From a virus, in UHGV virus genome UHGV-1792943: DNA of 29,897 nucleotides. One strand, 5' to 3'. Of this stretch, positions 8,686 through 29,558 are shown in pieces. Numbering within the stretch: position 1 is the stretch's first letter; every line of letters begins with the position of its first letter. The notes below the pieces were generated by a model. The model did not search any database, was not told the DNA's origin, and saw only the letters and a list, made by a program, of their open reading frames with translations. A program made the translations under genes and the position numbers.

Positions 8686-10371
8686 ATGGCAACGAAAGAC
8701 AAAAACAAAGGCTTTCTGTCGGCATTGAAGAAAGCCTTCAACAGTGGCGATGTCACGCCTGCTGATCCGGTCGTTTTTACAAGCGGTCATAGTGTCGTTG
8801 CGCGTTCTGGTCTGTCTGCTTTACGTCCGGGTATCCTGGGTGGCAATAGCGATGGCATGACAAGCGCGGCAGATACAGTATCAATTTCGGCAGAACTGCC
8901 CGGCGACCGCCTGCAAAAATACAACATACTGGAGACGATGGCGAAAAGTCCGACTATCTCCACAGCATTAAACATTCACATTGCGCATTCTCTGGCTCCA
9001 TCAAAAAAAACAGGCCTCGCATTTATTCTCGCTCCGAAAAATGGGGCAGATAAGGAGGCTGTAAGTCGATGTGAGGAATTGACCGCTGATTTAAGCTCAA
9101 TGATTAATGATGGCCTGCCATCGTGGGCCATGATCATGGCTATTTTCGGTGTGTCGTATATCCGTCCATATGCAGAGCAAGGGAAGGGGATAACTGGAAT
9201 TGAGTCGAGCTATTACACGCTCCCTCATTTCGTTCAGGAGTTTTATCGCGGTAGCCAACTTGTCGGATTCAGCGGTGATTACATTCTGGATACGCATACT
9301 TTGCGCAGAGTTATAACCGAACCATGGAATCTGGTTTCCATGAAAAACCCGTACTGGACGCCTCAGCATAATGTAATGCCAGTAACTTACGGCACTAAAG
9401 GCTATTCCTTGCTTAGTGAACAGCAGGACAAGCCGTTAATGGAGACGCAGAACTACGGTACGTCATTTCTTGAATACAGTTATGAACCCTACCTGAATTT
9501 ATGTGCCGCGCTTGCTGCGCTGAAAGCAACGCGAAACAACGCTGCAAAAATTGATCGCCTGATTGCACTCACAACGAACACGATAGATCCGGTAAATGCG
9601 GCGAATTATACGCGCGGGGTCAGCCAGGCACTGAAGCGTCATAGCGACCTCGTAGCGCAACGGTCGATTAATTCTAATGCTCTCCCATCTGTACTTAACC
9701 ATCTGATACCCGTCATGGGGGATGGGAAGAACGGGATCACCATTGATACGCAATCTATACCCGCAGATATCAGTGGTATCGAAGACGTTATGTTTCATCT
9801 CCGACAGCTCGCGGCAAGCCTCGGTATTGACGCAACAATGCTTGGCTGGGCTGATCAGATGAGTGGTGGACTTGGAGAAGGCGGTTGGCAGCAAACAGCT
9901 ATCCAGGCCGCCTTACGCGCGAACTGGATCAGACAGGCCGCCCAGCGGACTATTTATCGGCTTCATGACATTCACCTCGCTTATAAATACGGGAAGGTTT
10001 ACACCGAAAAAAACCGTCCTTATGACGTGCAATTCAACTCAATGAACACAGCTATCCAGGAAGAGGAAAACCGAGAGCTGGATGCGCGCGCCAACTTCGT
10101 AGCTGTCATCTCGCAAATAATGGACCAGATCCAGAACAACCCGAAACTGGCGGGTAGCGACGCGTTTATGCGTTATCTGTTCACCGAACAGCTTTGTATC
10201 GACGATGACACTCTCAACGTAATGATCAAAGAGTTTAAAGCGAATGAATCAGAGCAAAACAACGAGCATGGTATGTACGAATCCGCGCCGTTGTCGTCCG
10301 GTGACGATCCGGAAAACTGGACGCAAGAACAATTAATCAACTTTGCAAAATTTGTGATGAGCAATAATTAA
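8686..10371 (+). CDS. putative portal / head structural protein (561 aa)
   Basis: Size and position immediately upstream of a protease/scaffold-like gene; no decisive motif seen. Confidence 0.4.
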   Translation: MATKDKNKGFLSALKKAFNSGDVTPADPVVFTSGHSVVARSGLSALRPGILGGNSDGMTSAADTVSISAELPGDRLQKYNILETMAKSPTISTALNIHIAHSLAPSKKTGLAFILAPKNGADKEAVSRCEELTADLSSMINDGLPSWAMIMAIFGVSYIRPYAEQGKGITGIESSYYTLPHFVQEFYRGSQLVGFSGDYILDTHTLRRVITEPWNLVSMKNPYWTPQHNVMPVTYGTKGYSLLSEQQDKPLMETQNYGTSFLEYSYEPYLNLCAALAALKATRNNAAKIDRLIALTTNTIDPVNAANYTRGVSQALKRHSDLVAQRSINSNALPSVLNHLIPVMGDGKNGITIDTQSIPADISGIEDVMFHLRQLAASLGIDATMLGWADQMSGGLGEGGWQQTAIQAALRANWIRQAAQRTIYRLHDIHLAYKYGKVYTEKNRPYDVQFNSMNTAIQEEENRELDARANFVAVISQIMDQIQNNPKLAGSDAFMRYLFTEQLCIDDDTLNVMIKEFKANESEQNNEHGMYESAPLSSGDDPENWTQEQLINFAKFVMSNN

Positions 10372-10384
10372 CCGGAGGGAAATA

Positions 10385-11383
10385 ATGCAATCACTGAATA
10401 CCGTTACGGATCGCTTCTCCCTGGTAGAGAAAATCCGCAAACACACACCTCAGAACAATCGCAATTACGTTATCCAGTCGGTACGAGACACATTCAACTC
10501 GCCAGAAACAAAAGAGCGTATCGCACTGGGTGAGATGTATGGTTATTACGGTCATGGTCGCCGGGCGATGCACTATAACAAAACGAAAAGCCTGGACTTG
10601 CCGGAAGTCTCTGTTGTGATGGTAGATGGGAAGCCTGTTGTATTGGAGAACGTGCCGTCAAACAGGACTATCGACATTTCAATTGACGACAACGGCATTG
10701 TTACCCATACACAGGAAATACTGGATACGGACACCGGACGTATTGTTCAGGGTATGATTAATTCTGGCGCAGGTGGTTGGTCATGGGCTACATCTGGTCC
10801 AGATTACTCTGTATCCCTGGTAAAGTCTTTTCACGGTTTTGATTACGTAACTGTGCCTAACTATATCAGCCTCGACAAGAAAAGCCTGATGCTTGAATCA
10901 GCAGAAGAACGCGACGCGGCGATTCATGCGGCACTTATCGAACAAGGTTTTACCGATAATGCTGCTACGGATCTGGTTCACCACTTTTCAGCAATGAAGA
11001 GTCAGCAAGCCATATTCGAATCAGCACAACGTGAAGTTCTGGAGTCGGAACTGATACATCTTGAAGTGGAAAATATGCAGCTTCGCGACAAACTACGCGA
11101 CCAGGCCGCGATGATGGAAAGCCAGGGGGAGAACGCGAAGAAATGCCGCCGTATTTTGCGTGATGCTATCCAGGAAATGCCTGTTTTTATCAGCGCAGAA
11201 CAGCGCCGGGCGCTCTGCCGTATGCAGTCAGAGGATGATGCACGCATTGTCGCAGCGATGCTTGAATCCCTGGGGGCTAATGCCACTTATGGTCTGCCAA
11301 TATCAGCCAATAAACAACAAGAAATACCGGTGAAAGAGAACAAGACGGTGACTCCGCTGATCTTTGTGTCTAAGAGGATGTGA
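10385..11383 (+). CDS. putative head maturation protease or scaffold protein (332 aa)
   Basis: SD GGAGGG; coiled-coil C-terminal half; position after the portal-like gene. Confidence 0.35.
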   Translation: MQSLNTVTDRFSLVEKIRKHTPQNNRNYVIQSVRDTFNSPETKERIALGEMYGYYGHGRRAMHYNKTKSLDLPEVSVVMVDGKPVVLENVPSNRTIDISIDDNGIVTHTQEILDTDTGRIVQGMINSGAGGWSWATSGPDYSVSLVKSFHGFDYVTVPNYISLDKKSLMLESAEERDAAIHAALIEQGFTDNAATDLVHHFSAMKSQQAIFESAQREVLESELIHLEVENMQLRDKLRDQAAMMESQGENAKKCRRILRDAIQEMPVFISAEQRRALCRMQSEDDARIVAAMLESLGANATYGLPISANKQQEIPVKENKTVTPLIFVSKRM

Positions 11384-11400
11384 GCTAAAAGCTAGCTTAA

Positions 11401-11410
11401 TTTTCTAACA
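11401..11410. promoter_or_regulatory. operator-like site (TTTTCTAACA, minus-orientation copy of TGTTAGAAAA)
   Basis: Member of a dispersed motif family with eight sites; about 170 nt upstream of the 11583 gene. Confidence 0.4.
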
Positions 11411-11497
11411 CAGTGTGTTTTTATACACTGTTGATCCGACGGCACGTGATCGAGTAGGATCGCGGTCACTGCTCCGGTAGCGACTGCCAAAAAAAGC

Positions 11498-11523
11498 AAA
11501 AGCCGCTGAGTAGCGGCTTTTGG
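11498..11523 (+). terminator. rho-independent terminator
   Basis: aagccgct-gagt-agcggctt followed by TTTT. Confidence 0.7.
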
Positions 11524-11582
11524 GTGTATAAATCCACTGGCATAGATTTATACGGTAGATAGATTTTTCACGGAACTATCTG

Positions 11583-12545
11583 GTGAGTATTTTAAATTCA
11601 GTTTCAGTTACTTTCAACACTTCTGAGTATAAAAACAACACTGAATACCACAAAAAAATCAAAGGTCATCAGTTGAGTTTTTTTGCTCGTCATAGCGGTT
11701 TTCTTTCCCCTTCACATAGCGCCATTATTGCCGAGTTCGCCAACCTGGCAGGAGCTACCGATGAATACATGATCCGTCGCTCATATGCGGATATGTCCGA
11801 GATTACAGGACGCAGTATTTCTACTGTGCGCCGGGCATTTGCCGAAGCGACGAAGTGCGGAATGCTTGTTAAGCAGCATCAGGTAGCGAATAACAATGCT
11901 CAGGTGTGTAACGTGTACCGGTTTACAACACAATTTCTCCACTTCATTCATGTAGCAATGGAGATAGGGAGTAAGCAGGGCATCAAATTTGCCAACGCCA
12001 CAAAACTGGTTAAGCAGTTGATTTCAAAGGTTCGTTATTTTTTTGAAACTGGGAACCCCCTGTTCAAATTGAACAAGTCCCCCCATGTTCAAAATGAACA
12101 GCCAATAGAAAATAAGAGTCACTCTATAGCCAAAAGAAGAGAAAGATCATGCGCGGTTCAGCCAAAGGCTTCACCAGCAGATAGTTCTCAAGCGGATAAT
12201 GGGGGGCTGGATAAAAAACCAGTAACCAGGGAAGAACATACCAACCACTGCCTGGCGGCGGCAAAAGCGAGAGCTGCAAAGCGTCGTTCAGATGAGGGGC
12301 ACGCAAAACGGCAGGCTCTGTATCGTACCGCTGAAAAGCTGGCAAAAAAATTTGCATGGATACGTAGTGCCGCTACAGCAGTGAATAAGCCTAAACAATC
12401 CAGTGCCCTGGATTTCTCAATGGATTATTCTGGCTCCCAGGGGTGTGCAACCATTGGTGAAGCCTTTGACCTGATGAAACAGCGTGGCTATCGGTCTGAA
12501 TTTGACCGGGAAGACTGGTCAATTCCGGAGGGCTTTCGGGGATGA
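11583..12545 (+). CDS. putative DNA-binding protein, possibly a replication initiator (RepL-like by context)
   Basis: GTG start, exact start uncertain. HTH-like segment MSEITGRSISTVRRAFAEA; basic C-terminal region; two 15-bp palindromes lie inside the coding sequence. Confidence 0.4.
   Translation: MSILNSVSVTFNTSEYKNNTEYHKKIKGHQLSFFARHSGFLSPSHSAIIAEFANLAGATDEYMIRRSYADMSEITGRSISTVRRAFAEATKCGMLVKQHQVANNNAQVCNVYRFTTQFLHFIHVAMEIGSKQGIKFANATKLVKQLISKVRYFFETGNPLFKLNKSPHVQNEQPIENKSHSIAKRRERSCAVQPKASPADSSQADNGGLDKKPVTREEHTNHCLAAAKARAAKRRSDEGHAKRQALYRTAEKLAKKFAWIRSAATAVNKPKQSSALDFSMDYSGSQGCATIGEAFDLMKQRGYRSEFDREDWSIPEGFRG
12061..12101. repeat. two near-identical 15-bp palindromes (TGTTCAAATTGAACA and TGTTCAAAATGAACA), each preceded by a C5-7 tract, inside the 11583-12545 CDS
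   Basis: Read directly at 12061-12075 and 12087-12101. Confidence 0.8.
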
Positions 12546-12698: not shown

Positions 12699-12839
12699 TG
12701 TTCAGGCTTATATTCATGCCGTCGTAGCAAATTCTGCGACCGGGTTTAGCAGCCTGAATGTTAGTGCGGACAACCGCAGATATCCGATATTGCGGTATTT
12801 TTGTGTCCGTAAAACCGCGTTACGCCCAAATTATGGTGG

Positions 12840-12912
12840 GGCGTGATGGGGAGGCTTCGGCCTGCTGGTTTCACTAACGCCAGTCTGCTAACCCCGTCAC
12901 GTCCTGCCACCT
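12840..12912 (+). ncRNA. c4-like antisense regulatory RNA (boundaries approximate)
   Basis: Loops CACTAAC (12872-12878) and CTGCTAAC (12885-12892) are antiparallel complements of GTTTAGCAG and GTTAGTG. Those targets occur at 12746-12768 and again at 12913-12950, where GTTAGTG overlaps the SD of the downstream ORF. A UUCG tetraloop hairpin is present. Confidence 0.5.
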
Positions 12913-12961
12913 GTTTAGCAGCGGGTAGCAGGTTGTTAAACCTGTTAGTGAGGCCGTAACT

Positions 12962-13186
12962 ATGGTTAATGCCAATCCTTGCTCACGTCCAGAATTCATC
13001 TGGCGTTTTCACTCCCTGCAAAAACACTGCGATCACTTCGCAATTGCCGCAACTGAAAAAGAAGCCCGTTCTCTGATCCCTGATCAGTATGGCGTTCTCA
13101 CTGGTCGTTTCTCTACTTCCCCACAACCAAACACCAATCCCTGGTATCGCAATATTACCAATCCCGGCATTGCGGAGGCTCACTGA
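12962..13186 (+). CDS. icd: Icd-like small ORF translationally coupled to the antirepressor gene
   Basis: 74 aa; its SD is masked by the target repeat of the c4-like RNA; stop overlaps the ant start (TGATG). Architecture as in P1 immI. Confidence 0.5.
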   Translation: MVNANPCSRPEFIWRFHSLQKHCDHFAIAATEKEARSLIPDQYGVLTGRFSTSPQPNTNPWYRNITNPGIAEAH

Positions 13187-13893
13187 TGGATATCTGCATT
13201 CTCGAAAAGCCATCAATGACCAGCATTGAGATCGCGGAGCTGGTGGGAAAACGTCATGACAATGTGAAACGCACTATTGAGACATTAGACAAAGGTGGCG
13301 TTATTGTTCGTCCTCAAATTGAGGTTTTCGAAAAAATCAATAACTTAGGACTACGACGTAGTGTTGAGGCTTACGTCTTCGAAGGCGAGCAAAGCAAGCG
13401 CGATAGCATTATCGTCGTCGCGCAGCTCTCTCCCGAATTCACCGCCCGGCTGGTGGACCGCTGGCGCGAACTGGAAGAACAAGTACGCCAGCCGTTGACC
13501 GAAATAGAGATGATCGCTGCAATGGCTGCAAATGCAGTTCAGCAGCAAAAGCGGCTTCATGTTGTTGAGTCAAAGGTTAGCCAGGTTGCTGAAACCGTCG
13601 AGCAGATCAAGAAGGGCAACATGCCAGAAGGTTACATTGGCTATCGCCAGTTAGCGGCGAAATGTGGCCTGACTGAAGCCAAATGCCGTAACCTGGTCAA
13701 CGCTTACCGGATTCCCACAGATACGCATGAGTTTTTGACGCCAGAGGGGGTATTGTCGCGTCGTACTATTGTGGCCTTATCTCCCTTCATGAATGCCTTT
13801 ACCCTGATGATGTCGGAGGCTGAACACCGAGGAAAACGCTGGTATCACCCAAGGATGGGACAATTCCAGGTGATCGGTTGGGGAGGCGAGTGA
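13186..13893 (+). CDS. ant: antirepressor (Rha / Ant family)
   Basis: N-terminal SIEIAELVGKRHDNVKRTIETL is typical of Rha/antirepressor N-domains; SD GGAGG. Confidence 0.65.
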   Translation: MDICILEKPSMTSIEIAELVGKRHDNVKRTIETLDKGGVIVRPQIEVFEKINNLGLRRSVEAYVFEGEQSKRDSIIVVAQLSPEFTARLVDRWRELEEQVRQPLTEIEMIAAMAANAVQQQKRLHVVESKVSQVAETVEQIKKGNMPEGYIGYRQLAAKCGLTEAKCRNLVNAYRIPTDTHEFLTPEGVLSRRTIVALSPFMNAFTLMMSEAEHRGKRWYHPRMGQFQVIGWGGE

Positions 13894-14090
13894 TGGACAT
13901 CATGCAGGCGGTAAAAAAAATCAGGGAAGGACAGGCTGAAGTGTGCCGCCGTAAAGCATGGAGTGTTGGTATATGGATCTGGCCTGATAATTGCTCTACT
14001 ACCGGATGGTTTTGTATTAATGGATGCCAGATCCGGGAAGTCGATTTATCGACGGCGGATGCAGTCGGTAATGATTGGATCGTAACTTGA
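13893..14090 (+). CDS. small DUF2829 (Tad2)-like protein, 65 aa
   Basis: TGATG coupling to ant; SD GGGGAGG. Carries G-x3-V-x-RR-x2-W near the N-terminus and NDWIV at the C-terminus, shared with two other ORFs in the window. Confidence 0.45.
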   Translation: MDIMQAVKKIREGQAEVCRRKAWSVGIWIWPDNCSTTGWFCINGCQIREVDLSTADAVGNDWIVT

Positions 14091-14098
14091 AGTGTGAT

Positions 14099-14123
14099 GC
14101 CCCGGCCTGGCCGGGGCTTTTTC
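14099..14123 (+). terminator. rho-independent terminator
   Basis: gccccgg-cctgg-ccggggc followed by TTTTT. Confidence 0.75.
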
Positions 14124-14613
14124 ATGCCTCATTAGTTGAGGTTGCTGCGTCGCCGACAGGTAACAGAGCTGTATTGCGTGGTTCGCCAGCAGGCCAGCGA
14201 TAGCCAGACACTCTTGATGTTGGGAATGCGCGAATATTAACAGCATCCCCCTGGTTCCCACCCAAGACAAGCAGATCGCCATTGGCGCGGCGTCCGACAA
14301 CAAAGCCTACATGCCCACCGCCTGCGCGAGTAAATACAACGATACATCCGTATGCCGGTGTATCTAATTTCTCGCCCCAATCCAGATAGGATTTTGCCGA
14401 CTCAAATCTTGTTGAGCGGATGCCTACACGTTCCAGCATTGCACCGACAAATGCTGCGCACCACGGCGTTTCATCGTCTTTAATTCCACCGCGCTTAATA
14501 TCCCGCCAGAACTGGACGATCTCAGGATTGTGTTTCGCTCCTTTTATTTCGGTGACTCCAATATTTTTACGGGCTTCAATAAGCCAGCGAGGTTCATTAT
14601 TGATCATAATCAT
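14122..14613 (-). CDS. CHAP / NlpC-P60-like peptidoglycan hydrolase (TIGR02594-like)
   Basis: Candidate catalytic Cys in PWCAAFVGAM and His in GGGHVGFVVG. The true start may be the third codon (14607), which has better SD spacing. Confidence 0.55.
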   Translation of the reverse strand: MIMINNEPRWLIEARKNIGVTEIKGAKHNPEIVQFWRDIKRGGIKDDETPWCAAFVGAMLERVGIRSTRFESAKSYLDWGEKLDTPAYGCIVVFTRAGGGHVGFVVGRRANGDLLVLGGNQGDAVNIRAFPTSRVSGYRWPAGEPRNTALLPVGDAATSTNEA

Positions 14614-15394: not shown

Positions 15395-18300
15395 TTGAGG
15401 GGGCTTCCTTTGGACAAAATAATTGATTCAATTAGCCAGGCCACCAGCATTGGGGCGCTGATTGAAATTGTTAGTCGGTTGCATAAACCGCGAGCTGTAG
15501 TGACCTTTGGCGTTAAGAAAGTCGATGGCGTCAGTATTCAGAAAACACGCCGGGCAGCAAACAACGCCGCAGTAAATCTTCTTAATTCCCTTCCGCCTGG
15601 CTTCGATGGGGCGAAATTAACTGACGAACAGCGCCAGATTCTTGCCGGGTATACCGGTGAAGGCGGCCTGACAGATGGTGAGGGCAGCCAATACGAATAC
15701 TATACGCCACAGTTTATGGCAGAAGGTATATGGGATCTCTTCGGCGACTACGGTATTGATAGCGGTCACGTACTGGAACCGTCAGCAGGCACAGGTATTT
15801 TCCAGGAGACAAAACGGCAGGGCATGATAATGACCAGCGCCGAACTGTCTCCGATCTCCGGTCGAATAAACCAGCTTTTGCACCCGGAAGATGATGTGAA
15901 TATCGGGGCGTTTGAGGCGCTGGCGGCGAAAGATGCAATGTATGACCACGCAGTTGGTAACGTACCGTTTGGCGAAGGGCGTTCCGGCGTCGCCGGGCTT
16001 GATCCGGCATATGCAAACGAGAAGAACGTTGGCAATTATTTTGTGCTGCGCACGATCGACAAGGTTAAGCCTGGTGGACTAATTGTATTGGTGGTGCCGA
16101 ATGGCATGACCGATGGTACGAAATACAAAAAATTGCGCGATAAAGTCAGCCGTAAAGCGGAATTTTTGGGCGCGCATCGTATGCCTTCTGGTACGTTCAG
16201 CGAATCCGGTACAGATACCGTGGTGGACGTATGGGTATTGCGTAAACACCCGGAAACCTTCCTGGAGATGATCCCCGACACGGATGATGCAACGCTCAAA
16301 TCGGCAAACGTCCTTTGGGATACCTTCCTCAAAGGGAAATGGTTTACAACCGAAGGGAAGCGATTTGTTTACGGCGACATGGAACGCACCAGCTTCCGCA
16401 ATACCCTGGTGGTGAAAAAGGACGGTCGTGTATCCAATGAGTCGATGAAAACCGCGTTATCACGCCGCTTTGAAAGCCGTATTAATTGGGATTTGCTCGG
16501 AGTAACTACCCAGGCATGGCAGGGCGCAAAAGTAGGGGATAAGCGTCTTGTAGGCGGTATCTGGCATGAGTTTGATGGCCTGAAATGGGTTAAGGACACG
16601 ACAACCAAATCCTCCGCGCTTGATGTAAGTCGATATGGTGTTTCGACGTTTGGCGATCTGCAGATCGCGTTCCAGTCAACAAACGGGATTCTGGCTTTGT
16701 CATGGGACCAGATATCGGCGATCGCGTCCGACTATCCATCGGTTGTCAGTGATGAAGTGGCAGCAATGATTCGCTTTGCTGGCAAACAGCGAGAAAAAGA
16801 CAGGGAGCGCGTTATGCGCGGTGCGTTGATAGGGCAGTTGATCAACAAGGCACTTGATTTGCGTAACCTGGGGGTGAACGTTGATGACAAACTGGCAGAT
16901 GCATCCCGCCTGGCGGCAGCAGAAGTTGCGAAGTATGGACCACCGCACGCGATTAAGCTGAATGGGCTTGCTGAAGCTGGCGCTAAAAACTGGATGACGT
17001 TCACTGGCAATGTGAAACAGGATGGTTCCACTTCTGACCTTCTGGCAGGGCGACTTGATGTAACGGATGGTGCTGCCGGTATTGACTTTACACGTCCGGA
17101 ACAAGTGATAGCACATCTTTTCAGTGATGTAGCCCTTAATCCTATAACGCTGGGCGACTTTCGTGAGGCGTTTGCTGGTGAACTGCCAGAGGACGACGAC
17201 GCGGCCCTTGAATACCTGGCGAAATTTGATGATATCGCTATTGATGGGTATGGCTGCCTGCTACCGATGGACCGCGCCACCAGCGGCGATATTGTAACCA
17301 AAACAGCATTGCTGGTGGGCTGGCGTGATGCATCAACAGGTGAGCAGAAAGCGAACTTTGAGCGTCAGTTGGCGAAAATCGAAGAGAAACGCATTTTCAC
17401 GCCACTAAATAAAGTCACCGTTAATCTGAACGCCCGCTGGCTGGATCGCCGCTTGATAAAAGAGTTCCTGGCAGAGCAGGGCTATGACGAGTTTAAGTAC
17501 ACAGAACCTGATCTGAAGATCGTCGATGGCATTCTGGTATCTCCGGACGATTACGAAGGTAAGGACGGGGTATTTACCGGCTATCAGCTACGAACCGTAA
17601 ACGGCAAAAACGGGAATGAGTTCAAGAAGGCCAACAATAAAGACGGCTTCCTGAACCAGTTAGAAAACTACCTGAACGGTGTTAAACCGCGTGGGCAGAA
17701 CGCTAACGAGTACCTGGATAAAATTGCTCAACTGGAAGTTAGCTTTAACGACTGGTTACGCACCCACCCGCAGGCGGATCAGATAGCCCGTGACTATAAC
17801 GACGCATTCAATGGCTTCATTCCGTTCACGCACTCTAACGCACCGCTTGGCCTGGAAGGGATTAGTGGAAAGCGCATTCCTCTGACTTATCAGAATGAAG
17901 AAGTTCGTCGCTTGTCAGAAGATGGGCGCGGCATCATGGGATTTGGTACCGGGCTGGGTAAAACCACGACCGCGCTTGCGCTTGAGGCGTATAACTTCGA
18001 AACAGGTCGTACTAAACGCACGTGTATTGTTGTTCCGAAGGCGGTTTATCAGAACTGGTATCACGAGGCACAGAGCTTCTACAGTGCTGATGCCTTCGCC
18101 AATATGATGTTTATCGGTCTGGATGAAGTTCGTGATGACAGCGGAAATATTCTGACCGCTCCGGTGCTTGATGAAAATGGCGAACCCCGCCTCGACAGTA
18201 ACGGGCAGCCTCTTACCAGAAATGTTGTGAAAGAGTCCGCCAGCGCCGTTATCGTTCAGCGCATGAACATGATCCCGTCGTCAAATTGGCGAACGGTCAT

Positions 18301-21300
18301 CATGACAAAAGAACAATTCGCGTCTATCCCGCTACGAGAAAAAACCATCGAGGAGAACTCACAGCAAGCTGTCTTTAATGCTGTGGAAATGGGGCGTCTT
18401 GACCTGGCGTCTGGTAAACATCGTGATGCGCAGAAGAAGAACAAGATTAAGGATCAGGCCGCGAATACCGGTACAACGAAGAAGCAGAATATCCCGTACT
18501 TTGAGGATATGAACTTCGATAGCGTGATTGCCGACGAGGGGCATAACTACCGCAACTCCTTTAATGCCGGGCGTGAAGCGGGACAACTGGCATATTTGCC
18601 TAACCCGGCAGTATCCAAGATGGCCCGCGACATGGCTGTAAAAGCTGCGTACATGATGAAACGCAACAACGGGCGTGGTGTAGTCATGCTGACGGCAACA
18701 CCGCTGGTGAACAGTCCGATTGATGCCTTCAACATGCTGTCTACAGTCATTCCGCAGGAAGAGTGGATGCGCATGGGCATCATTACGCCTGATGATTTCG
18801 TTCGTGTGTTTGGTAAAACAGCCACAGTTCAGGTCCAGAAAATTTCCGGGGAAGTGGAAGAGAAGCAGGGGCTGGTTGGCTTCCAGAACCTTGATGGCCT
18901 GCGTGGTATTTTCCATCGCTGGACTACTCTGAAGACTGCTGCGGACGTCGGGGCGACGGTTAAAATCCCTGATATTGTCGAGAATACCTTGCAGATCCCG
19001 ATGACAGGGGAGCAGGAGGCTGCTTATGAAGAGCTTCGTAAGCGTGCACAGGAGTTAAGTAGTAAAGATGCGCTGACGGTTGATGAAAACGGGCATATCA
19101 CAAACGAAAAACCGGATGATTTCATCTTCTCCATCATCCGCGACATGGATAAGGTTGCTATAGATCCGGATCTGTATGCCAGTGCGATTACATTCCAGTT
19201 CCCCGTTGAGCTTGCAGACAAGGTAAAAGCTATTGCTGATGCCCTGCCAAAAGTAGCTGGCGGTAAAGTGGCAGATGATGCAGACGAGGCCGAAGAAGAC
19301 GGCGCTGGTGGGCTGGTTAGTACGCGCACCAGTAAGGTAGTGAAGACCACCTTTAGTGAACATCCGGCGCATGTTGAAATACGTGCCAGCATTGAACTGG
19401 AAGCTGAAATACTGAAGGCCATTGCTGCCGCCGGGATTGATATGCAGCAGGTATCACACCCAATCCCGCCGAAGTATGCCGCGCTGATCGAAAACCTTCG
19501 TGAAGGTCTGAAGAACGGTAAACAAATTGTCTTCATTGATGAAAAAGCCCAGCACCAGAAGCTGCGCCGTATTATCGCCAGTGCACTGCAAATGCCGGAG
19601 CAAGAGATAGGCATTATCAATGCGACGACCGTTAGCCAGGCTGGCGGCATCAAGCTGAAGAAGGTGAATAAGCCGACTGAACCTACTCCGAATAAAAACG
19701 GTGAATACAAAGAAGGGGCATGGGAAACCTACTACAGCAAACTTGCCCAATATGAGGATTATCTCTCAGCTAAAAATGATGCTGGCCTTGAGGGTATGGA
19801 AGGCATTGCCGCCGACTATAACGAAGGGCGCACGCGCATAATTATCTGTAACAAGAAGGCTGAAGTAGGTATTAACCTGCATATCGGGACAACCGATATC
19901 CACCACCTGACACTACCCTGGACACCAGCCAGTATCGACCAACGAAATGGGCGCGGTGCGCGCGTAGGTTCACCGCAAGAGAAGGTCAATGTTCACTACT
20001 ATTGTGGCAAAGGCACATTCGACGACTTCCGTCTGGATACGCTGAAACGTAAGAAAGACTGGATCAAGATGGTGATGACCTCCGACATGTCAGAGATCGC
20101 CAATGGTGATGCGGATGATGCTGATGAACGCGCCATTATGCTGGCGGCAAACCCGGAAGAACGCCGCGCAATCATGGCTCGCCAGGCGCAAGAGCGTGAA
20201 GAACGTCTGAAACTGAAAGCACAGCGCGAGGCCAACAATGCTCTCGATATCTACCTGAAAGCGGCAAACGCCGCTGGAAAAGATATCGGCATGATGGAGA
20301 CAGAACTGAAAAGCGCGATGGAACAGATAGAGTATTACCAGCGAAATCTTGACGACCTGATAAAAGCAGGTACGAACAGGAATGGGCAAAAATTCGCGCT
20401 TGAGCAGTTGAGTAGCTACAGAAAACGTGCGCGGGTGCTGCGGTTTGCGATCACCAGGGCAAAAGACGCGGATACCATAATGAAACGCTCTCGTGGTGAT
20501 GTGGAGCGCGCTATTAAGTCTGGTGTGCTGGATATCAGTATCGATGTTATTCAGAACCCACAGGAATATATGCGCACTGACAAGAATATCCTGTTGCATA
20601 AAGGTAGTTATTACCGTGCAGTCATTGATGATCGCGAAACAACAGCGATTGTCCGGGTGGAAAAAATTGACGGTGAAAAAGCACAATACCTCTGCCGTAT
20701 CGCCTGGCTGGATAGAGCAAGTCGTTACGCTCGATCACCGGGGTCAATCGTTACATTGCCGTTTGACTCTGTGATTGAAGCGGTAACTTTTGAAGAGGGG
20801 GTAGCTGAATCGCGCGCAACGGCTGCGCGTGGTGTTCAGTGCCACCAGCTATCAACAATACTTACTCGCGATCAGTTCTATGATGCTATTCGCAATGGGG
20901 TAATGAATGTTATTGCTGGTAAACCTGGTAATGCATGGGGCGGTGGGTCAGCTATTAAATACTGGGCATATCGCACAGATGATGGTCAGATCGCGCTGTC
21001 ATCGGCCTATGATGGCGTGATAGGCCAAAAAATCGGGCGAGCATCGGATATAGCACCTGAACGATGGATATATCCAGATGGCAACGATGAGGCGCTGAAG
21101 CGTGAAGTGGCAAAAATACAAGCCAGTGATAACCCGCTGAATATCGTGGACGGCGAGGGATTCCTCCAGGCATTGTATGGGTATGATTACATCCAGGGAA
21201 TGCAGGCATGGGGCGCACAGGCAACGATGGATGATGTTGTCCAGGAGTTCGAAAACTGGATGGCTGGGCGTGGTCTGTCAGGTCGTTCGCTTAATAAAGT

Positions 21301-22246
21301 CACTTCTGAAGATATTCTTAGCTTGTTCCGCAAACCGTCCGGAGAAGGTCTGGAATCATTCTGGAGGACCGTGCTGGCATACCGTTTATTCAAGGGCAGA
21401 ATGAAAGCCTTTAGCAATATCGATGATATTGAACGGATGTTTAATCAGGTCAAGATCGCCAAAATTAAGACGAAGATCGAAAAAACACGTTCTGCGCTGG
21501 TGGCCTGGCGCGATGCATTGTTTGAGCAATATAAATCACTCAGTGATGCAGATGGATGGGCGGCATTGGAACAGTTGGCGAATAATGGGGTAGATGGAGC
21601 GAAACTCGCCATAGTCCAGGCTGATAACCCCCTGGAATCACCGGCAGCACAGTGGATTAAGGTGGGGGCTGTCATCAATGCATTTGATGAAAAACACATT
21701 AGTAAGGACGATTTTGCTGATGCTGTTTCTGTTAATCGCCTGGTAGAAATGGCTACCCGCCGCGCCCGTGAGTTGAAAGACGGTGACTATGTGAATGAGT
21801 TGCCGGATGCGCTCAAATCAGCAACGTGGCAAGACTATGTATCGCTGAAAAACGGCGGGGCCACCGAATCAGAGATCGCGGAAAGGCTTGAACAGGCTGA
21901 AAGCAAAAGAGAAGAGCAGGCGGCAGTGGCTGAAGCCAGAGCTGATGAAGCGGCGAATGATGACTATATCATTGTGGTTAATGATAAGCCGATTCGCGCT
22001 AAGGCGCGTGTTCGCGGGCGCTGGTGGAGTGTCAGCGAGGACGTCGGTGCGGTTTATCTCATTGCCGACCAACCTGGTTCCTCGACAATACGGAACGCCA
22101 AAGACGCGATTAAGAAGATTGGCGGGCGTTTCTGGAATTTTGAAGCAAACCCGGTTGCTGATGTGAACTTTGACCGTCCTGCATGGATGGTATCTACGCG
22201 TTACTCGGTAGATGAACTGCGTAAAATAATCGCCGATGCGGCCTAA
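15395..22246 (+). CDS. darB: giant N6-adenine methyltransferase plus SF2 helicase protein, DarB-like (2283 aa)
   Basis: MTase motifs YYTP, EPSAGTG (nt 15776-15796) and GNVPFG (nt 15956-15973). Helicase motifs: Walker A GTGLGKTT (from nt 17939), DEGH (nt 18533-18544), TATP, QRNGRGAR. TTG start is uncertain. Architecture and size match phage P1 DarB as recalled. Confidence 0.7.
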   Translation: MRGLPLDKIIDSISQATSIGALIEIVSRLHKPRAVVTFGVKKVDGVSIQKTRRAANNAAVNLLNSLPPGFDGAKLTDEQRQILAGYTGEGGLTDGEGSQYEYYTPQFMAEGIWDLFGDYGIDSGHVLEPSAGTGIFQETKRQGMIMTSAELSPISGRINQLLHPEDDVNIGAFEALAAKDAMYDHAVGNVPFGEGRSGVAGLDPAYANEKNVGNYFVLRTIDKVKPGGLIVLVVPNGMTDGTKYKKLRDKVSRKAEFLGAHRMPSGTFSESGTDTVVDVWVLRKHPETFLEMIPDTDDATLKSANVLWDTFLKGKWFTTEGKRFVYGDMERTSFRNTLVVKKDGRVSNESMKTALSRRFESRINWDLLGVTTQAWQGAKVGDKRLVGGIWHEFDGLKWVKDTTTKSSALDVSRYGVSTFGDLQIAFQSTNGILALSWDQISAIASDYPSVVSDEVAAMIRFAGKQREKDRERVMRGALIGQLINKALDLRNLGVNVDDKLADASRLAAAEVAKYGPPHAIKLNGLAEAGAKNWMTFTGNVKQDGSTSDLLAGRLDVTDGAAGIDFTRPEQVIAHLFSDVALNPITLGDFREAFAGELPEDDDAALEYLAKFDDIAIDGYGCLLPMDRATSGDIVTKTALLVGWRDASTGEQKANFERQLAKIEEKRIFTPLNKVTVNLNARWLDRRLIKEFLAEQGYDEFKYTEPDLKIVDGILVSPDDYEGKDGVFTGYQLRTVNGKNGNEFKKANNKDGFLNQLENYLNGVKPRGQNANEYLDKIAQLEVSFNDWLRTHPQADQIARDYNDAFNGFIPFTHSNAPLGLEGISGKRIPLTYQNEEVRRLSEDGRGIMGFGTGLGKTTTALALEAYNFETGRTKRTCIVVPKAVYQNWYHEAQSFYSADAFANMMFIGLDEVRDDSGNILTAPVLDENGEPRLDSNGQPLTRNVVKESASAVIVQRMNMIPSSNWRTVIMTKEQFASIPLREKTIEENSQQAVFNAVEMGRLDLASGKHRDAQKKNKIKDQAANTGTTKKQNIPYFEDMNFDSVIADEGHNYRNSFNAGREAGQLAYLPNPAVSKMARDMAVKAAYMMKRNNGRGVVMLTATPLVNSPIDAFNMLSTVIPQEEWMRMGIITPDDFVRVFGKTATVQVQKISGEVEEKQGLVGFQNLDGLRGIFHRWTTLKTAADVGATVKIPDIVENTLQIPMTGEQEAAYEELRKRAQELSSKDALTVDENGHITNEKPDDFIFSIIRDMDKVAIDPDLYASAITFQFPVELADKVKAIADALPKVAGGKVADDADEAEEDGAGGLVSTRTSKVVKTTFSEHPAHVEIRASIELEAEILKAIAAAGIDMQQVSHPIPPKYAALIENLREGLKNGKQIVFIDEKAQHQKLRRIIASALQMPEQEIGIINATTVSQAGGIKLKKVNKPTEPTPNKNGEYKEGAWETYYSKLAQYEDYLSAKNDAGLEGMEGIAADYNEGRTRIIICNKKAEVGINLHIGTTDIHHLTLPWTPASIDQRNGRGARVGSPQEKVNVHYYCGKGTFDDFRLDTLKRKKDWIKMVMTSDMSEIANGDADDADERAIMLAANPEERRAIMARQAQEREERLKLKAQREANNALDIYLKAANAAGKDIGMMETELKSAMEQIEYYQRNLDDLIKAGTNRNGQKFALEQLSSYRKRARVLRFAITRAKDADTIMKRSRGDVERAIKSGVLDISIDVIQNPQEYMRTDKNILLHKGSYYRAVIDDRETTAIVRVEKIDGEKAQYLCRIAWLDRASRYARSPGSIVTLPFDSVIEAVTFEEGVAESRATAARGVQCHQLSTILTRDQFYDAIRNGVMNVIAGKPGNAWGGGSAIKYWAYRTDDGQIALSSAYDGVIGQKIGRASDIAPERWIYPDGNDEALKREVAKIQASDNPLNIVDGEGFLQALYGYDYIQGMQAWGAQATMDDVVQEFENWMAGRGLSGRSLNKVTSEDILSLFRKPSGEGLESFWRTVLAYRLFKGRMKAFSNIDDIERMFNQVKIAKIKTKIEKTRSALVAWRDALFEQYKSLSDADGWAALEQLANNGVDGAKLAIVQADNPLESPAAQWIKVGAVINAFDEKHISKDDFADAVSVNRLVEMATRRARELKDGDYVNELPDALKSATWQDYVSLKNGGATESEIAERLEQAESKREEQAAVAEARADEAANDDYIIVVNDKPIRAKARVRGRWWSVSEDVGAVYLIADQPGSSTIRNAKDAIKKIGGRFWNFEANPVADVNFDRPAWMVSTRYSVDELRKIIADAA

Positions 22247-22282: not shown

Positions 22283-22717
22283 ATGACGACATTAATTGAC
22301 ACTGTAAAACCGACGGAATCCTACCTTGAGGACATTTTGCCGCAGGCGCTCAATGGCAGGAGTGAAGAGGCGTTTCTGGATGCATATCTGGATGGCATGG
22401 CGGAAAGGCTGAAAAGAGATCCACAGCTTTATCATCTTTATGGGCCGTGGTGGCCTGCGCTTAAAACGTTATTGCTGGAGCGTGGCGACATATCATTTGG
22501 ACAAGTTGTAGATAGTGATGTGGCAGAAATCTACAAAATGAGTCGCCCGGCGCTTACGGTTTTAGCCGGGCATCTGTATTCGAGCGATCGCCTGGAAAAT
22601 GACGCGGTATACAATCCCGTTCATGCTCTGGAAGTCGCGCCTTATGCTGATGATACAGAGCCATACGTATACACAAGTTACGACGAGTCTATAGAGAAAT
22701 ATCGAATCGTGGGGTAG
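22283..22717 (+). CDS. hypothetical protein (144 aa)
   Basis: ORF directly after the giant gene; no motif recognised. Confidence 0.45.
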   Translation: MTTLIDTVKPTESYLEDILPQALNGRSEEAFLDAYLDGMAERLKRDPQLYHLYGPWWPALKTLLLERGDISFGQVVDSDVAEIYKMSRPALTVLAGHLYSSDRLENDAVYNPVHALEVAPYADDTEPYVYTSYDESIEKYRIVG

Positions 22718-22980: not shown

Positions 22981-23156
22981 AAATAACAAGTTGGGTAAAT
23001 GACATACAATTTACCCGGCTTGTTGACCCGCATCACCATTTACTCTAAAAACAAGTCCGACCTGTTGCATCCGCCTATCTCTTCAGTAGTATTCCCCTCG
23101 GTTTTGATAAAACTAACGCTCTTGTTATTATCGTGTTCATGATTTCAGGAAGTTTG

Positions 23157-23165: not shown

Positions 23166-23169
23166 TTTG

Positions 23170-23613
23170 ATGCGAAGACGCAGGCATCATAGTGCGTATT
23201 CTGAAATATCCCCGCACGCTGCTGCACTGAGAGAGTTAGAAAGAAATCCTGACTTATTAAAACGGAATTACGAACATTACGAACAGGTTCGCGTTCTGGA
23301 TTGGCTGTATCGCAACATGCGATACGTGTATGAGCACACACACTCAACACCGAACGGCGGCCTGAGAGGCAAAAGGACAGCCATTAAGATGGTGGCAGAA
23401 GGTCAGAAGAAGGGCTATCCGGACCTTTCTATTGACCTTGCTCGTGGTGGGTATCACGGAATGCGCATTGAGATGAAGCACGGGAGAAACCGTCTGACTC
23501 CCGAACAGCTCGTCTGGATGACTCGCCTCACGGAAGCAGGCTATTACTGCTTTGAGGCGCGCAGTGCCGATGAAGCCATAAAAGCTATCACGGAATATGT
23601 AAATCTTGATTAA
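23170..23613 (+). CDS. VRR-NUC domain nuclease
   Basis: GYPDLSIDL ... IEMK ... LTPEQLVW pattern of a PD-(D/E)xK VRR-NUC fold. Confidence 0.6.
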   Translation: MRRRRHHSAYSEISPHAAALRELERNPDLLKRNYEHYEQVRVLDWLYRNMRYVYEHTHSTPNGGLRGKRTAIKMVAEGQKKGYPDLSIDLARGGYHGMRIEMKHGRNRLTPEQLVWMTRLTEAGYYCFEARSADEAIKAITEYVNLD

Positions 23614-23627
23614 ACGGAGAAATCGTT

Positions 23628-23828
23628 TTGCGTTTACTTAACGTGGCTGAACTTATCCCTGCCGGTGCTAACGTTGTTGCTCGTCGCTGCTCATGGCCTC
23701 ATTCTTTCTGTATAGAGCTTAAAAAGATGGATGATGGGGCATTAGAAGCCCGAAACATAGTTACCGGCGACAAGGTATGCATTACCCCGGAAAGCGCGAA
23801 AGCCAATGATTGGGAGTTTGTTCATTGA
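23628..23828 (+). CDS. small DUF2829 (Tad2)-like protein, 66 aa
   Basis: TTG start with SD GGAGA; VARRCSW and C-terminal ANDWEFV motifs shared with 13893-14090 and the C-terminus of 28603-29178. Confidence 0.4.
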   Translation: MRLLNVAELIPAGANVVARRCSWPHSFCIELKKMDDGALEARNIVTGDKVCITPESAKANDWEFVH

Positions 23829-23890
23829 GCAGAAAACACCACGTAAATCTGACGTTTGCTGATGACGCCGGAAGAACCAGAAGCATAACC

Positions 23891-24136
23891 ATGAAAGTTG
23901 CTTCCAGGAAAGTAACCGCGCCACTTATACGAGAGGCCGTAAGTGAACTTGATATGAGTGAGAATGCAGCTCTGTTATCGGTAAGCTGGCTGGGGAAAAT
24001 GACGGATCAGGAATACTCGGATGGTATACCCCACGGTGAGCGGCAGATAGTAAAGCGCGCGTTTAGAATTTCAGAGGTAGTTGTCGTACTGATAGCTTTG
24101 ATTTATATGGCATACATGCTACTCCAACACGTCTAA
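23891..24136 (+). CDS. small C-terminally membrane-anchored protein
   Basis: C-terminal hydrophobic helix VVVVLIALIYMAYMLL; start uncertain (track ORF begins at 23810). Confidence 0.35.
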   Translation: MKVASRKVTAPLIREAVSELDMSENAALLSVSWLGKMTDQEYSDGIPHGERQIVKRAFRISEVVVVLIALIYMAYMLLQHV

Positions 24137-24144
24137 ACGGTCAT

Positions 24145-24169
24145 AAACCCGCCAGTTGGCGGGTTTTTT
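24145..24169 (+). terminator. rho-independent terminator
   Basis: aacccgcc-agtt-ggcgggtt followed by TTTTTTG. Confidence 0.8.
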
Positions 24170-26799: not shown

Positions 26800-26876
26800 G
26801 ATGGTGTAGCTCAGTAGGATAGAGCAGCAGCCTTCTAAGCTGTCGGTCGGTGGTTCGAATCCACCCACCATCGCCA
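26800..26876 (+). tRNA. tRNA-Arg (anticodon TCT)
   Basis: Full cloverleaf folded by hand: acceptor gatggtg / caccatc, anticodon loop cttctaa, T-loop ttcgaat, encoded CCA. Confidence 0.8.
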
Positions 26877-26882
26877 ATTTAG

Positions 26883-26968
26883 GGGAGTTAGTCCGTAGGG
26901 GTAGCGGGGTAGACTGTAAATCTACTGTCATTGCGACTCGGATGGTTCGACTCCATCACTCCCCACCA
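26883..26968 (+). tRNA. tRNA-Tyr-like (anticodon GTA), long variable arm, slightly irregular D-arm
   Basis: Acceptor ggggagt / actcccc, anticodon stem gtaga / tctac with loop ctgtaaa, 15-nt variable arm, T-loop ttcgact, CCA. Confidence 0.5.
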
Positions 26969-26972
26969 AATT

Positions 26973-27048
26973 GCCGGTTTAGCTCAGTTGGTAGAGCGCC
27001 TGCCTTGTAAGCAGGATGTCAGCGGTTCGAGTCCGTTAACCGGCACCA
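26973..27048 (+). tRNA. tRNA-Thr (anticodon TGT)
   Basis: Acceptor gccggtt / aaccggc, anticodon loop cttgtaa, T-loop ttcgagt, CCA. Confidence 0.8.
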
Positions 27049-27050
27049 AC

Positions 27051-27146
27051 ACAACAGGTAAGGGTATTTTGCGACGTCGGAGATCGCCGAGCTTGGCAGA
27101 GGGTTCGAATCCCTACGAAGTACCCTTACCGTTGTGATGAATGCAC
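27051..27146 (+). repeat. hairpin family member H3, with an internal T-arm-like minihelix
   Basis: Arms ACAACAGGTAAGGGTA / TACCCTTACCGTTGTG, tail ATGAATGCAC; begins 3 nt after tRNA-Thr. Confidence 0.55.
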
Positions 27147-27315
27147 AGGCTGATGTGCCGCAACTACAGTAGTGCGCGCTTTGCGGGGCTTGCTACAACC
27201 CTGTGTCGGAATTCAGCACCGACCATCACAGTTTGATTCTCTGGCATGAGCATAACGCTGAAATAAGTCCAGTCTGGTGCGGTCTGATCACCCGCCGTTA
27301 GCTCCACGATACGGA

Positions 27316-27416
27316 GCGCACAACAGGTAAGAGTATTTGTAGAGTTCGACTCTCTACCGTGGGCTTTTTCCCGCGATGCGAGCCATAAATGCTCTTTCCG
27401 TTGTGGTGAATGCGCG
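27316..27416 (+). repeat. hairpin family member H4, with an internal perfect T-arm-like hairpin (gtagag-ttcgact-ctctac)
   Basis: Arms GCGCACAACAGGTAAGAGTATTTG / AAATGCTCTTTCCGTTGTGG, tail TGAATGCGCG. Confidence 0.55.
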
Positions 27417-27558
27417 TTGCTAGCGCGCAAGTCCGCCCTATGGCAACGAGGCGGCGTAGTAAATATCGATGCCTCAGTCATCAAGCGCACTGACCGGCCT
27501 TATGGGCTATGAAAAAAAGAGGCGCAGTCGGAGTTCAGCACCGACCATCACAATCACT

Positions 27559-27645
27559 GGAGAGTAGGGAGCATGGTGCTCAAGCGGTCTTGAAAACCGT
27601 CCCATTGCGCAAGCGATGATGGTTCGATTCCATTACTCTCCGCCA
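27559..27645 (+). tRNA. tRNA-Ser-like (anticodon TGA), type II with long variable arm
   Basis: Acceptor ggagagt / actctcc, anticodon stem gcggt / accgt with loop cttgaaa, T-loop ttcgatt, CCA. The D-arm is not perfectly canonical. Confidence 0.45.
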
Positions 27646-27768
27646 GCGCAACGTTAAGAGTATTTGGCTAATTAAGCGAATGCCGGAAGCAGAACCGGAT
27701 CACCAAATGCGTACAGGCGTCATCGCCGCCCAGTCAGCCAAATGCTCTTACCATTGCGGTGAATGCGG
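27646..27768 (+). repeat. hairpin family member H5
   Basis: Arms GCGCAACGTTAAGAGTATTTGGC / GCCAAATGCTCTTACCATTGCGG, tail TGAATGCGGC; starts at the base after the tRNA-Ser-like CCA. Confidence 0.55.
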
Positions 27769-27936
27769 CTAAGCGCACGCGGAACAGTTAAAACAGTAAA
27801 GGTGGTCTTTTTACTGGCGTAACGAGAATCCATAAGTGATCCGGCGTTAATTGTTAACTGGTTAACGTCACCGGGAGGCACCCGGCACCGCAACCTAACA
27901 GCAATGGCGTTTTGTCTTAAAAGGTGGCTGCAAGTG

Positions 27937-28065
27937 ATGGATTTTTGGGCGTTTGCCGATAAAAACCCGGAGTGGACATTATTGTTTCTGCTGGTGGTTG
28001 CATACGGGGTAGAGCAAGCGGCAAAAGCCTTACGCGGTTCTGGCAAAAAGCGTAAGCGTAATTAA
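27937..28065 (+). CDS. 42-aa small membrane peptide (MDFWAFADKNPEWTLLFLLVVAYGVEQAAKALRGSGKKRKRN)
   Basis: SD AAGGTGG 8 nt upstream of the ATG; one hydrophobic helix and a basic tail; absent from the ORF track because it is under 60 aa. Confidence 0.35.
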   Translation: MDFWAFADKNPEWTLLFLLVVAYGVEQAAKALRGSGKKRKRN

Positions 28066-28074
28066 CAGTAATCT

Positions 28075-28150
28075 GGCCCTTTAGCTCAGTGGTTAGAGCG
28101 GGCGACTCATAATCGCACGGTCACCGGTTCAAGTCCGGTAGGGGCCACCA
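28075..28150 (+). tRNA. tRNA-Ile2 (anticodon CAT, lysidine type)
   Basis: Near-identical to the enterobacterial ileX-type tRNA as recalled: acceptor ggccctt / aggggcc, anticodon loop ctcataa, T-loop ttcaagt, CCA. Confidence 0.8.
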
Positions 28151-29178: not shown

Positions 29179-29558
29179 TGTACGAGGCTACTAAATTACG
29201 CACTGAGGATGCGATGCACATTGGTTGGGACATCATCACCTGCAAGATAACATCATGCAAGGCTACACGCACAGACGCCGGACACAAGAGCACAATATCA
29301 GGTTATGTCGTGATGTCAGTCAGGAGTGTGCGCATACGCTTCAGATGGAAAGCCTGCCAGGTTACATCATCAATGCCGCTTACCGTCGAGCAGGATTATT
29401 TATGCTTACCCGAAATAGACGGAGCGTTGCTGGTGGGCAATAGTGGTCGAAAAGCCGATTTTGAAGCCAGTCTGAAGATGGCGCAGGCGGTGATCAACAA
29501 ACATAAAGGGAAGTGGGAGGCAAAAGTTAAGCATGTTGTTCGTTTATCCCGCTGGTAG
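29178..29558 (+). CDS. hypothetical protein (126 aa)
   Basis: TGATG coupling to the upstream gene; no motif recognised. Confidence 0.45.
   Translation: MYEATKLRTEDAMHIGWDIITCKITSCKATRTDAGHKSTISGYVVMSVRSVRIRFRWKACQVTSSMPLTVEQDYLCLPEIDGALLVGNSGRKADFEASLKMAQAVINKHKGKWEAKVKHVVRLSRW

Follow-up and report, generated by a model that had tools for sequence, protein, structure and literature searches.

Among the few families of phage sponge proteins known so far is Tad2, and the list of bacterial signalling defences that its members block is growing. In P1-type immI operons, a C4 antisense RNA controls the expression of icd and ant, and in P1 itself Ant1 and Ant2 act together. Both systems bear on three open reading frames (ORFs) in the viral genome UHGV-1792943, a stretch of 29,897 nucleotides that is referred to below, over its whole length, as the window. 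ORF A (13893–14090, + strand) encodes 65 amino acids, ORF B (23628–23828, +) encodes 66, and ORF C (28603–29178, +) encodes 191. A preliminary description of the sequence had presented them as three DUF2829 (Tad2)-like paralogs and, together, as a diversified set of anti-defence sponges. The genes are present at these coordinates with the translations described, and each is preceded by a Shine-Dalgarno sequence – GGAGG 8 nucleotides upstream of ORF A, whose ATG overlaps the stop codon of the gene before it; GGAG upstream of ORF B, which starts with TTG; and AGGAG upstream of ORF C. The explanation favored here is that the three are members of one divergent domain superfamily with different jobs, which, taken as a whole, we consider moderately probable. 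The most useful new result is the relationship of ORF A to the antirepressor, which, judged by sequence comparison, occurs in both a split and a fused form.

The solved Tad2 sponges combine an N-terminal helix with an antiparallel sheet, the helices alpha2 and alpha3 lying in extended loops; they are homotetramers that bind an immune signal at nM–µM affinity and rescue phage on hosts with the matching defence. The dimer interface (alpha2) of Tad2 proteins is part of an insertion between beta2 and beta3/beta5, which in the long forms also holds the cyclic-dinucleotide site. A second tryptophan (W73 in SPO1 Tad2, W87 in HgmTad2) stacks on the ligand. The published ligand contacts are W25, N26, W73 and D79 in SPO1 Tad2, and W21, N22, G23, W87, S90, T92 and D93 in HgmTad2.

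The nearest characterized relatives of the three ORFs come from a 2025 screen in which 18 Tad2 homologs were tested against seven systems (bioRxiv 10.1101/2025.08.24.671296, Table S2). They are Tad2_69 (T69) and Tad2_72 (T72), both of the 'RR-x-x-WP' clade, and the short form Tad2_80 (T80), none of which is from a P1/D6-type element; ORFs A, B and C themselves were not found in Table S2. ORF C is 31% identical to T69 (E 1e-10), 27% to T72 (E 2e-9) and 33% to T80 (E 1e-5). Among the tested homologs, T69 is the best match of a hidden Markov model (HMM) of the ORF B family, and T80 is the best match of ORF A. Of the three, only T72 was active, against type I Thoeris in plaque assays; neither T69 nor T80 inhibited any of the seven systems (bioRxiv 10.1101/2025.08.24.671296). 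With one of these relatives active and two inactive, function cannot be carried over from them to ORFs A, B and C. T72 and ORF C both carry the sequence RR-x-x-WPK, and the W-P of T72 is compatible with type I Thoeris activity.

As judged from nucleotide alignments, the window comes from a phage-plasmid of Escherichia coli that is D6-like and related to P1. The regions around the three ORFs have 86–90% nucleotide identity to Escherichia phage D6, a P1-related plasmid-prophage, and there are shorter nucleotide matches to P1 and P7 in the same regions. The E. coli plasmid NZ_LR890273.1 (92.8 kb) matches a 17.4-kb stretch of the window at 99.7% identity, and at least 80% of that stretch is found in each of 91 plasmid records. 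ORFs A, B and C correspond to orf17, orf11 and orf6 of D6, all annotated there as hypothetical proteins. None of the three has a match in NCBIfam or PADLOC, and in homolog searches all three families were confined to D6-like elements.

ORF A and the antirepressor of the immI-type operon

ORF A lies at the end of an operon that resembles immI of P1. The features of this operon, all on the + strand, begin with a c4-a1b1 target element (12708–12760; 53.9 bits for Rfam RF03163, whose gathering score is 46.7) and a C4 antisense RNA gene (12829–12914; 70 bits for Rfam RF01695, gathering score 45). These are followed by an icd-like gene for a host cell division inhibitor (12962–13186), which has ca. 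91% nucleotide identity to icd of P1 and P7 and is so annotated in D6 and in the near-identical plasmid. A Rha/Roi-type antirepressor of 235 amino acids (13186–13893; Pfam Phage_pRha, 36.9 bits), which corresponds to the N-terminal part of a split Ant, comes next. ORF A overlaps this ant gene by ATGA and has a strong Shine-Dalgarno sequence; translationally coupled to ant, it is the final gene of the c4-icd-ant operon under the control of C4 RNA. An intrinsic terminator with a stem of 8 G-C pairs and a T-run (14099–14117) closes the operon, 9 nucleotides past the ORF A stop codon.

A scan of the whole near-identical plasmid NZ_LR890273.1 with a combined profile of the ORF A and ORF B families identified a second icd-ant locus at 60550–61703. 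It consists of an icd-like gene and, with overlapping stop and start codons, a gene for a Rha-type Ant paralog of 313 amino acids. The N-terminal part of this paralog is 66% identical to the Ant protein of the window over 237 amino acids, and its last 65 residues align with ORF A without gaps at 37% identity (E 3e-17). Both forms are present in D6 itself. Among the Ant/ORF A loci of IMG/VR, 21 are split and 16 are fused, and four contigs hold both. ORF A also has a weak PHROG match on the C-terminus of an 'Ant' family. In these comparisons ORF A is a detached C-terminal domain of a Rha-type antirepressor, one half of a fission/fusion pair. It would most likely act as a subunit that joins the antirepressor non-covalently, with a part in binding a partner or in oligomerization.

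Relative to the immI operon of P1 (c4-icd-ant1/ant2), the likeness lies in the C4 antisense RNA, the a1b1 targets and the icd gene that precede the antirepressor gene, and in an antirepressor function that, as in P1, appears divided over two polypeptides. There are two differences. The antirepressor of the D6-like element is of the Rha/Roi type and not P1 Ant1/2, so that the window has a P1-type control region despite a Rha/Roi-type antirepressor; and its partner polypeptide is a DUF2829-like mini-domain translated on its own, which in the paralogous locus is fused to the antirepressor. If the analysis holds, one of the stripped-down DUF2829-like forms of ca. 65 residues, which have lost the ligand pocket, has been recruited as an antirepressor module. 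The tie to the antirepressor suggests a possible link between DUF2829-like domains and the lysis-lysogeny decision.

An origin of ORF A as a Roi module was considered and rejected, as ORF A does not accompany Roi in the one lambdoid phage compared. Nothing was found in a scan of GTDB genomes for the ORF A-type domain. On the opposite strand, a gene with similarity to CHAP-domain and TIGR02594 peptidoglycan hydrolases (14122–14613, −) converges on the terminator of ORF A; the D6 name for this gene is 'baseplate hub subunit and tail lysozyme'.

The Tad2-like domain of ORF C

ORF C encodes two domains. The N-terminal domain (residues 1–95, 28603–28887) has no recognizable family, and the C-terminal domain (residues 103–190; 28909–29178, a span that includes residue 191 and the stop codon) belongs to PF11195, the Tad2-like/DUF2829 family. 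The PF11195 model has a length of 73 positions and a curated gathering cut-off of 25 bits, and it was one of 24,736 Pfam models scanned. Residues 103–190 of ORF C match positions 3–72 of the 73 with 40.4 bits (E 4.4e-10) and so pass the cut-off. ORF C also matches PHROGs 872 and 1048, the same families that the solved Tad2 proteins match at 1e-24 to 1e-30. A clade profile was made of ORF C, its 43%-identical ortholog from a diverged element, and two tested homologs. In a search of the PDB, its matches were the seven solved Tad2/AcrIIA7 sequences (E 2.8e-11 to 4.5e-4) and no others. On this evidence the C-terminal half of ORF C is a genuine PF11195/Tad2-family domain.

Compared with the solved sponges (SPO1 Tad2, HgmTad2 or AcrIIA7, SptTad2 and MoTad2), the last 90 residues of ORF C align end to end, and the beta2-beta3 insertion is included in the alignment with SptTad2. 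Both pocket tryptophans, the pocket aspartate and the terminal A-x-DW strand are present. ORF C retains W121, W176 and D182 at the positions of W21, W87 and D93 of HgmTad2, and has a threonine (T179) at the position of S90. It differs in having a proline (P122) for the phosphate-binding asparagine N22, a deletion of the following G23, and a valine (V181) for T92. R31 and S47, the cyclic-dinucleotide residues of HgmTad2, are not conserved and align to leucine and phenylalanine. A further difference is the unrelated 95-residue N-terminal domain, which has no Pfam match and is unlike the N-terminal extensions of 80 viral Tad2 homologs; it is kept at 43% identity in the diverged D6-like contig L110.

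The family membership of ORF C makes it a credible candidate for a sponge of immune signals. In its most likely role, that of its family, it would oligomerize and sequester a nucleotide-derived signal in a pocket formed by W121, W176, T179 and D182. With a proline for the phosphate-binding asparagine, and with the cyclic-dinucleotide site of HgmTad2 unconserved, the sequence does not single out a ligand. If the analysis holds, the Tad2 family extends into P1-type elements, with at least two canonical Tad2-like genes as testable candidates in the D6-like phage-plasmids, a group widespread in E. coli.

A very different function is implied by RefSeq, where the copy of this protein from the near-identical plasmid, the same in sequence, is named 'MW1434 family type I TA system toxin'; by that name ORF C would be the toxin of a type I toxin-antitoxin (TA) system. 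This name goes back to a bioinformatic list of Staphylococcus aureus TA candidates, and the paper in which the list appeared gives MW1434 as a predicted type I toxin, with no experiment on MW1434. ORF C has 191 residues and no long hydrophobic stretch, unlike type I toxins, which are small, hydrophobic, membrane-active peptides with a cis antisense RNA as antitoxin; it has no NCBIfam or PADLOC match, and there is no Rfam antisense family at its locus. Structures and binding data have since led Pfam to rename the family Tad2-like. We give the toxin function almost no credence.

The ORF downstream of ORF C (29178–29558, +; orf5 of D6) overlaps it by TGATG, is translationally coupled to it and has no family match. 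As ORF 29175–29558, it was considered as a fourth copy of the domain because of a weak score in one HMM ranking, but rejected, as it has neither the motif nor a family match.

Kinship of the three ORFs and the minimal forms

The preliminary description had connected the three ORFs through two motifs, G-x3-V-x-RR-x2-W near the N-terminus and a DW-containing motif at the C-terminus. The N-terminal motif is exact in ORFs A and B; ORF C has a shorter version, G-x3-RR-x2-W. Written as a regular expression (G.{3,5}RR..W), it was found in 3 of the 519 six-frame segments of at least 30 amino acids. The C-terminal expression ([NT]DW[IE][VF].{0,2}$) was likewise found in three, and in both cases these are ORFs A, B and C, in each of which the C-terminal motif sits at the extreme end of the protein. 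In 2000 residue shuffles there was a mean of 0.6 matches to the N-terminal motif, 0.0015 to the C-terminal motif, and 0.0 to both. The motifs were defined post hoc from ORFs A, B and C, which makes the shuffle test partly circular, and an HMM from the ORF B family alone was added as an independent test because of this. Searched against 327 decoys from the window, it placed ORF A first (17.1 bits, p 1.8e-7) and ORF C next (11.4 bits, p 1e-5), and after these ca. 20 unrelated viral Tad2 homologs outranked the first decoy. The observation of three related ORFs was thus borne out by the expressions, the shuffles and the HMM. Also correct were the statements that the genes are in three different operons, that one is coupled to the antirepressor and that one is fused to an unknown N-terminal domain.

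Other comparisons of the three families gave a similar picture. An HMM of the ORF A-type domain finds the ORF B family reciprocally (E 4.5e-4 to 0.02 in a database of 1140 segments), and alignment of the two families with hhalign gave a probability of 86–91% over the full length (E 1e-6 to 5e-6). Pairwise BLASTP was marginal – E 0.02 between ORFs A and B, E 2e-4 between B and C, and no match between A and C – so the kinship is visible at the profile level only. The common fold proposed for the three would consist of an N-terminal helix, a strand with RR-x2-W, a small SH3-like beta-barrel, and a last strand with DW.

ORFs A and B share with the Tad2 sponges the alpha1-beta1 RxxW module and the terminal DW strand. 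They are without ca. 35–45 residues of Tad2, which comprise the insertion with alpha2, one strand, and the second tryptophan. The first pocket tryptophan is kept in both; the pocket aspartate is kept in ORF A (D56) and is a serine in ORF B. Without the insertion and the second, ligand-stacking tryptophan, binding of gcADPR-type molecules in the manner of Tad2 is not expected, and it is unlikely, going by these residues, that ORFs A and B have Tad2-type sponge activity. T80, a 73-residue short form with the ca. 66-residue architecture of ORFs A and B, passes the PF11195 cut-off at 29.9 bits. Another short form, of ca. 68 residues, is found in tandem with a full-size Tad2 domain in a viral ORF of 187 amino acids (IMGVR_UViG_2731639260_000001; L044:601–942 and upstream). 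Its sequence contains G-KKV-R-x2-W and, at a distance, TDWEI, and it matches PF11195 weakly over the N-terminal 24 residues only (E 0.11). If the analysis holds, the existence of minimal forms without a pocket would make it unsafe to call every DUF2829-like match an anti-defence sponge.

ORF B is the middle gene of a three-gene unit on the + strand. A candidate sigma-70-like promoter (23104–23131; TTGATA-16-TATTAT with an extended TG, 10 of 12 positions, identified by consensus match only) precedes a gene with a VRR-NUC nuclease domain (23167–23613), which is similar to pmgM of P1 (Pfam VRR_NUC 26.2 bits; D6 annotation). ORF B follows, and its end is overlapped by a pmgR-like gene (23810–24136; D6 annotation); an intrinsic terminator with a 9-pair stem (6 G-C) and a T-run (24145–24166) closes the unit. 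The order of ORF B and the gene after it is the same in two diverged D6-like contigs (L110 and L112), whose ORF B homologs are 35–44% identical. In these contigs the arrangement darB–ulx–x–VRR-NUC–B–97-amino-acid gene–pmgS-like is kept, with overlaps of 4 nucleotides.

The ORF B family is small. When 1.8 billion representatives were scanned in full with HMMER, only seven clusters were real, with proteins of 66–76 residues, and three further matches were low-complexity false positives. The AlphaFold 2 model of ORF B (predicted local distance difference test, pLDDT, 84) is a confident one and shows four strands and two short helices, alpha1 and another ahead of the last strand. Foldseek found no significant match for this model in the PDB; the top match in BFVD was a 66-residue 'DUF2829 domain-containing protein' of Pectobacterium phage CBB (E 0.011, 26% identity). 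The predicted product is a minimal DUF2829-like small beta-barrel, and it would be a protein-binding accessory of the VRR-NUC–B–PmgR-like cassette, the weakest of the inferences made here.

ORF B is 70% identical to its D6 ortholog in amino acid sequence, compared with 92% for both ORF A and ORF C. There are 53 nucleotide differences from D6 in the 201 positions of ORF B (20 synonymous and 19 non-synonymous codons), 11 in the 198 of ORF A, and 57 in the 576 of ORF C. The divergence of ORF B suggests either fast evolution or replacement by recombination.

The link of ORFs A and B to PF11195 is a remote one. ORF A matches the model at 16.9 bits (E 0.0095; residues 1–64 to model positions 1–72 of 73), and ORF B has no match. 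Relatives of ORF B reach 13.1 bits at best (E 0.15), the consensus of its family 11.8 bits (E 0.37), and the joint consensus of the A and B families 13.8 bits. PF11195 is nevertheless the best match for ORF A and for the joint consensus, and the only or best weak match for three members of the B family; for the B-family consensus it is second, behind a sub-threshold match to Cyc-maltodext_C. The C-terminus of the fused Ant paralog has no match to PF11195. ORF A also matches phrog_643 (E 0.006), as does MoTad2 (6e-4). The DUF2829/Tad2 assignment originally made for all three ORFs, and the HMM search against PF11195 proposed for checking it, therefore came out differently for each: it stands for ORF C, which is above the cut-off and has the support of the clade profile, and is plausible for ORFs A and B only as remote homology. 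We judge that ORFs A and B quite probably belong to the DUF2829 superfamily.

If they do not, ORFs A and B would be a small-barrel family of their own, with a likeness to Tad2 in RR-x2-W and DW that arose by convergence or chance, as can be imagined for short SH3-like domains. This is unlikely, given that PF11195 recurs, weakly and mostly over the full length, for ORF A, the joint consensus and several relatives of ORF B; that the HMM made from the B family alone puts ORF C and ca. 20 Tad2 homologs ahead of all but one decoy; that the top structural match of ORF B in BFVD is itself a 66-residue DUF2829 protein; and that genuine PF11195 short forms exist, both in T80 and in the N-terminal half of the L044 tandem protein. 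At the other extreme, all three ORFs could be Tad2-type sponges for a range of immune nucleotides (Thoeris, CBASS, Pycsar), as the preliminary description had proposed. The N- and C-terminal signatures of the family are common to all three, and the Tad2 family is diverse, with homologs that block Thoeris I, II and IV, CBASS and Pycsar. The early, derepression-dependent operon of ORF A would suit an anti-defence gene, and ORF B is fast-evolving. Yet the absence from ORFs A and B of the insertion that carries the dimer interface and cyclic-dinucleotide site, and of the second tryptophan, the failure of the short form T80 to inhibit any of the seven systems, the nature of ORF A as an antirepressor module, and the fixed place of ORF B in a conserved three-gene cassette instead of a variable anti-defence island make this distinctly unlikely. 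For ORFs A and B, the notion of a diversified sponge set is unsupported.

A more speculative variant gives the minimal forms a function in sensing. The antirepressor mini-domain would be a small-molecule sensor that descended from a Tad2-type sponge and lets an immune or stress nucleotide of the host switch the antirepressor on, with ORF B as a third, differently tuned sensor for the VRR-NUC cassette. We regard this as very improbable. If it were true, the plasmid-prophage would eavesdrop on defence signalling and induce as its host nears abortive infection.

Several observations weigh against the favored explanation, that ORFs A, B and C are members of one superfamily with different jobs. ORFs A and B are both below the Pfam cut-off of PF11195. 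The AlphaFold 2 model of ORF A, made from a two-sequence alignment, is unusable (pLDDT 51). When ORF A or B is aligned by hhalign with long-form Tad2, only the N-terminal 20–30 residues align, with a probability of 2–56%. As for the separate jobs, T69, the nearest tested relative of ORF C, inhibited 0 of 7 systems, and with the change from asparagine to proline and the unconserved cyclic-dinucleotide residues, ORF C may be no sponge at all. The label 'antirepressor', which implies inactivation of a C1-type repressor, comes from the position in a P1-type immI operon and from the D6 annotation, and the function given to ORF B is weakly indicated, by little beyond guilt by association. Some further searches were also negative. 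Against the shallow family of ORF C, hhalign aligned only the RR-x2-W region of ORF A or B; its global and low-MAC (maximum accuracy) modes forced the C-terminal motif into register, with no significance. PDB searches with ORFs A and B, as single sequences and as shallow profiles, returned no Tad2 and only noise (major histocompatibility complex proteins, Fc receptors and a copper oxidase).

Other DUF2829-like domains and neighboring genes

The D6-like element holds five DUF2829-like domains – two canonical ones, in ORF C and in a protein of 216 amino acids, and three minimal ones. The 216-amino-acid protein is encoded outside the window, at 41076–41726 of NZ_LR890273.1, directly after dut; it is annotated as 'DUF2829 domain-containing protein' and matches PF11195 with 66.7 bits. 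Several viral Tad2 fusions (L032, L051 and L064) share the N-terminal domain of this protein (motif YLIVYENGYLFYAPEKPFEECY).

Between ORFs A and B, the window encodes a DarB-like SNF2 helicase/methyltransferase of 2283 amino acids (15395–22246, +) and a ulx-like gene (22283–22717, +). The two correspond to the Dar anti-restriction system of P1, and known anti-defence functions are thus close to both ORF A and ORF B. A HicA toxin that is annotated in the near-identical plasmid was looked for and is absent from the window.

A cluster of five tRNA genes (Arg-TCT, Tyr-GTA, Thr-TGT, Ser-TGA and Met-CAT; 26800–28150, +) immediately precedes ORF C on its own strand. The D6 annotation of this region has three tRNAs only, and the window differs from D6 there. 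In L112 (Logan contig SRR32618728_280), the region of the tRNA genes and ORF C is replaced by a microcin-like cluster of YcaO, ABC transporter and pentapeptide-repeat genes, located at 9032–12201, 3' of the pmgS-like gene.

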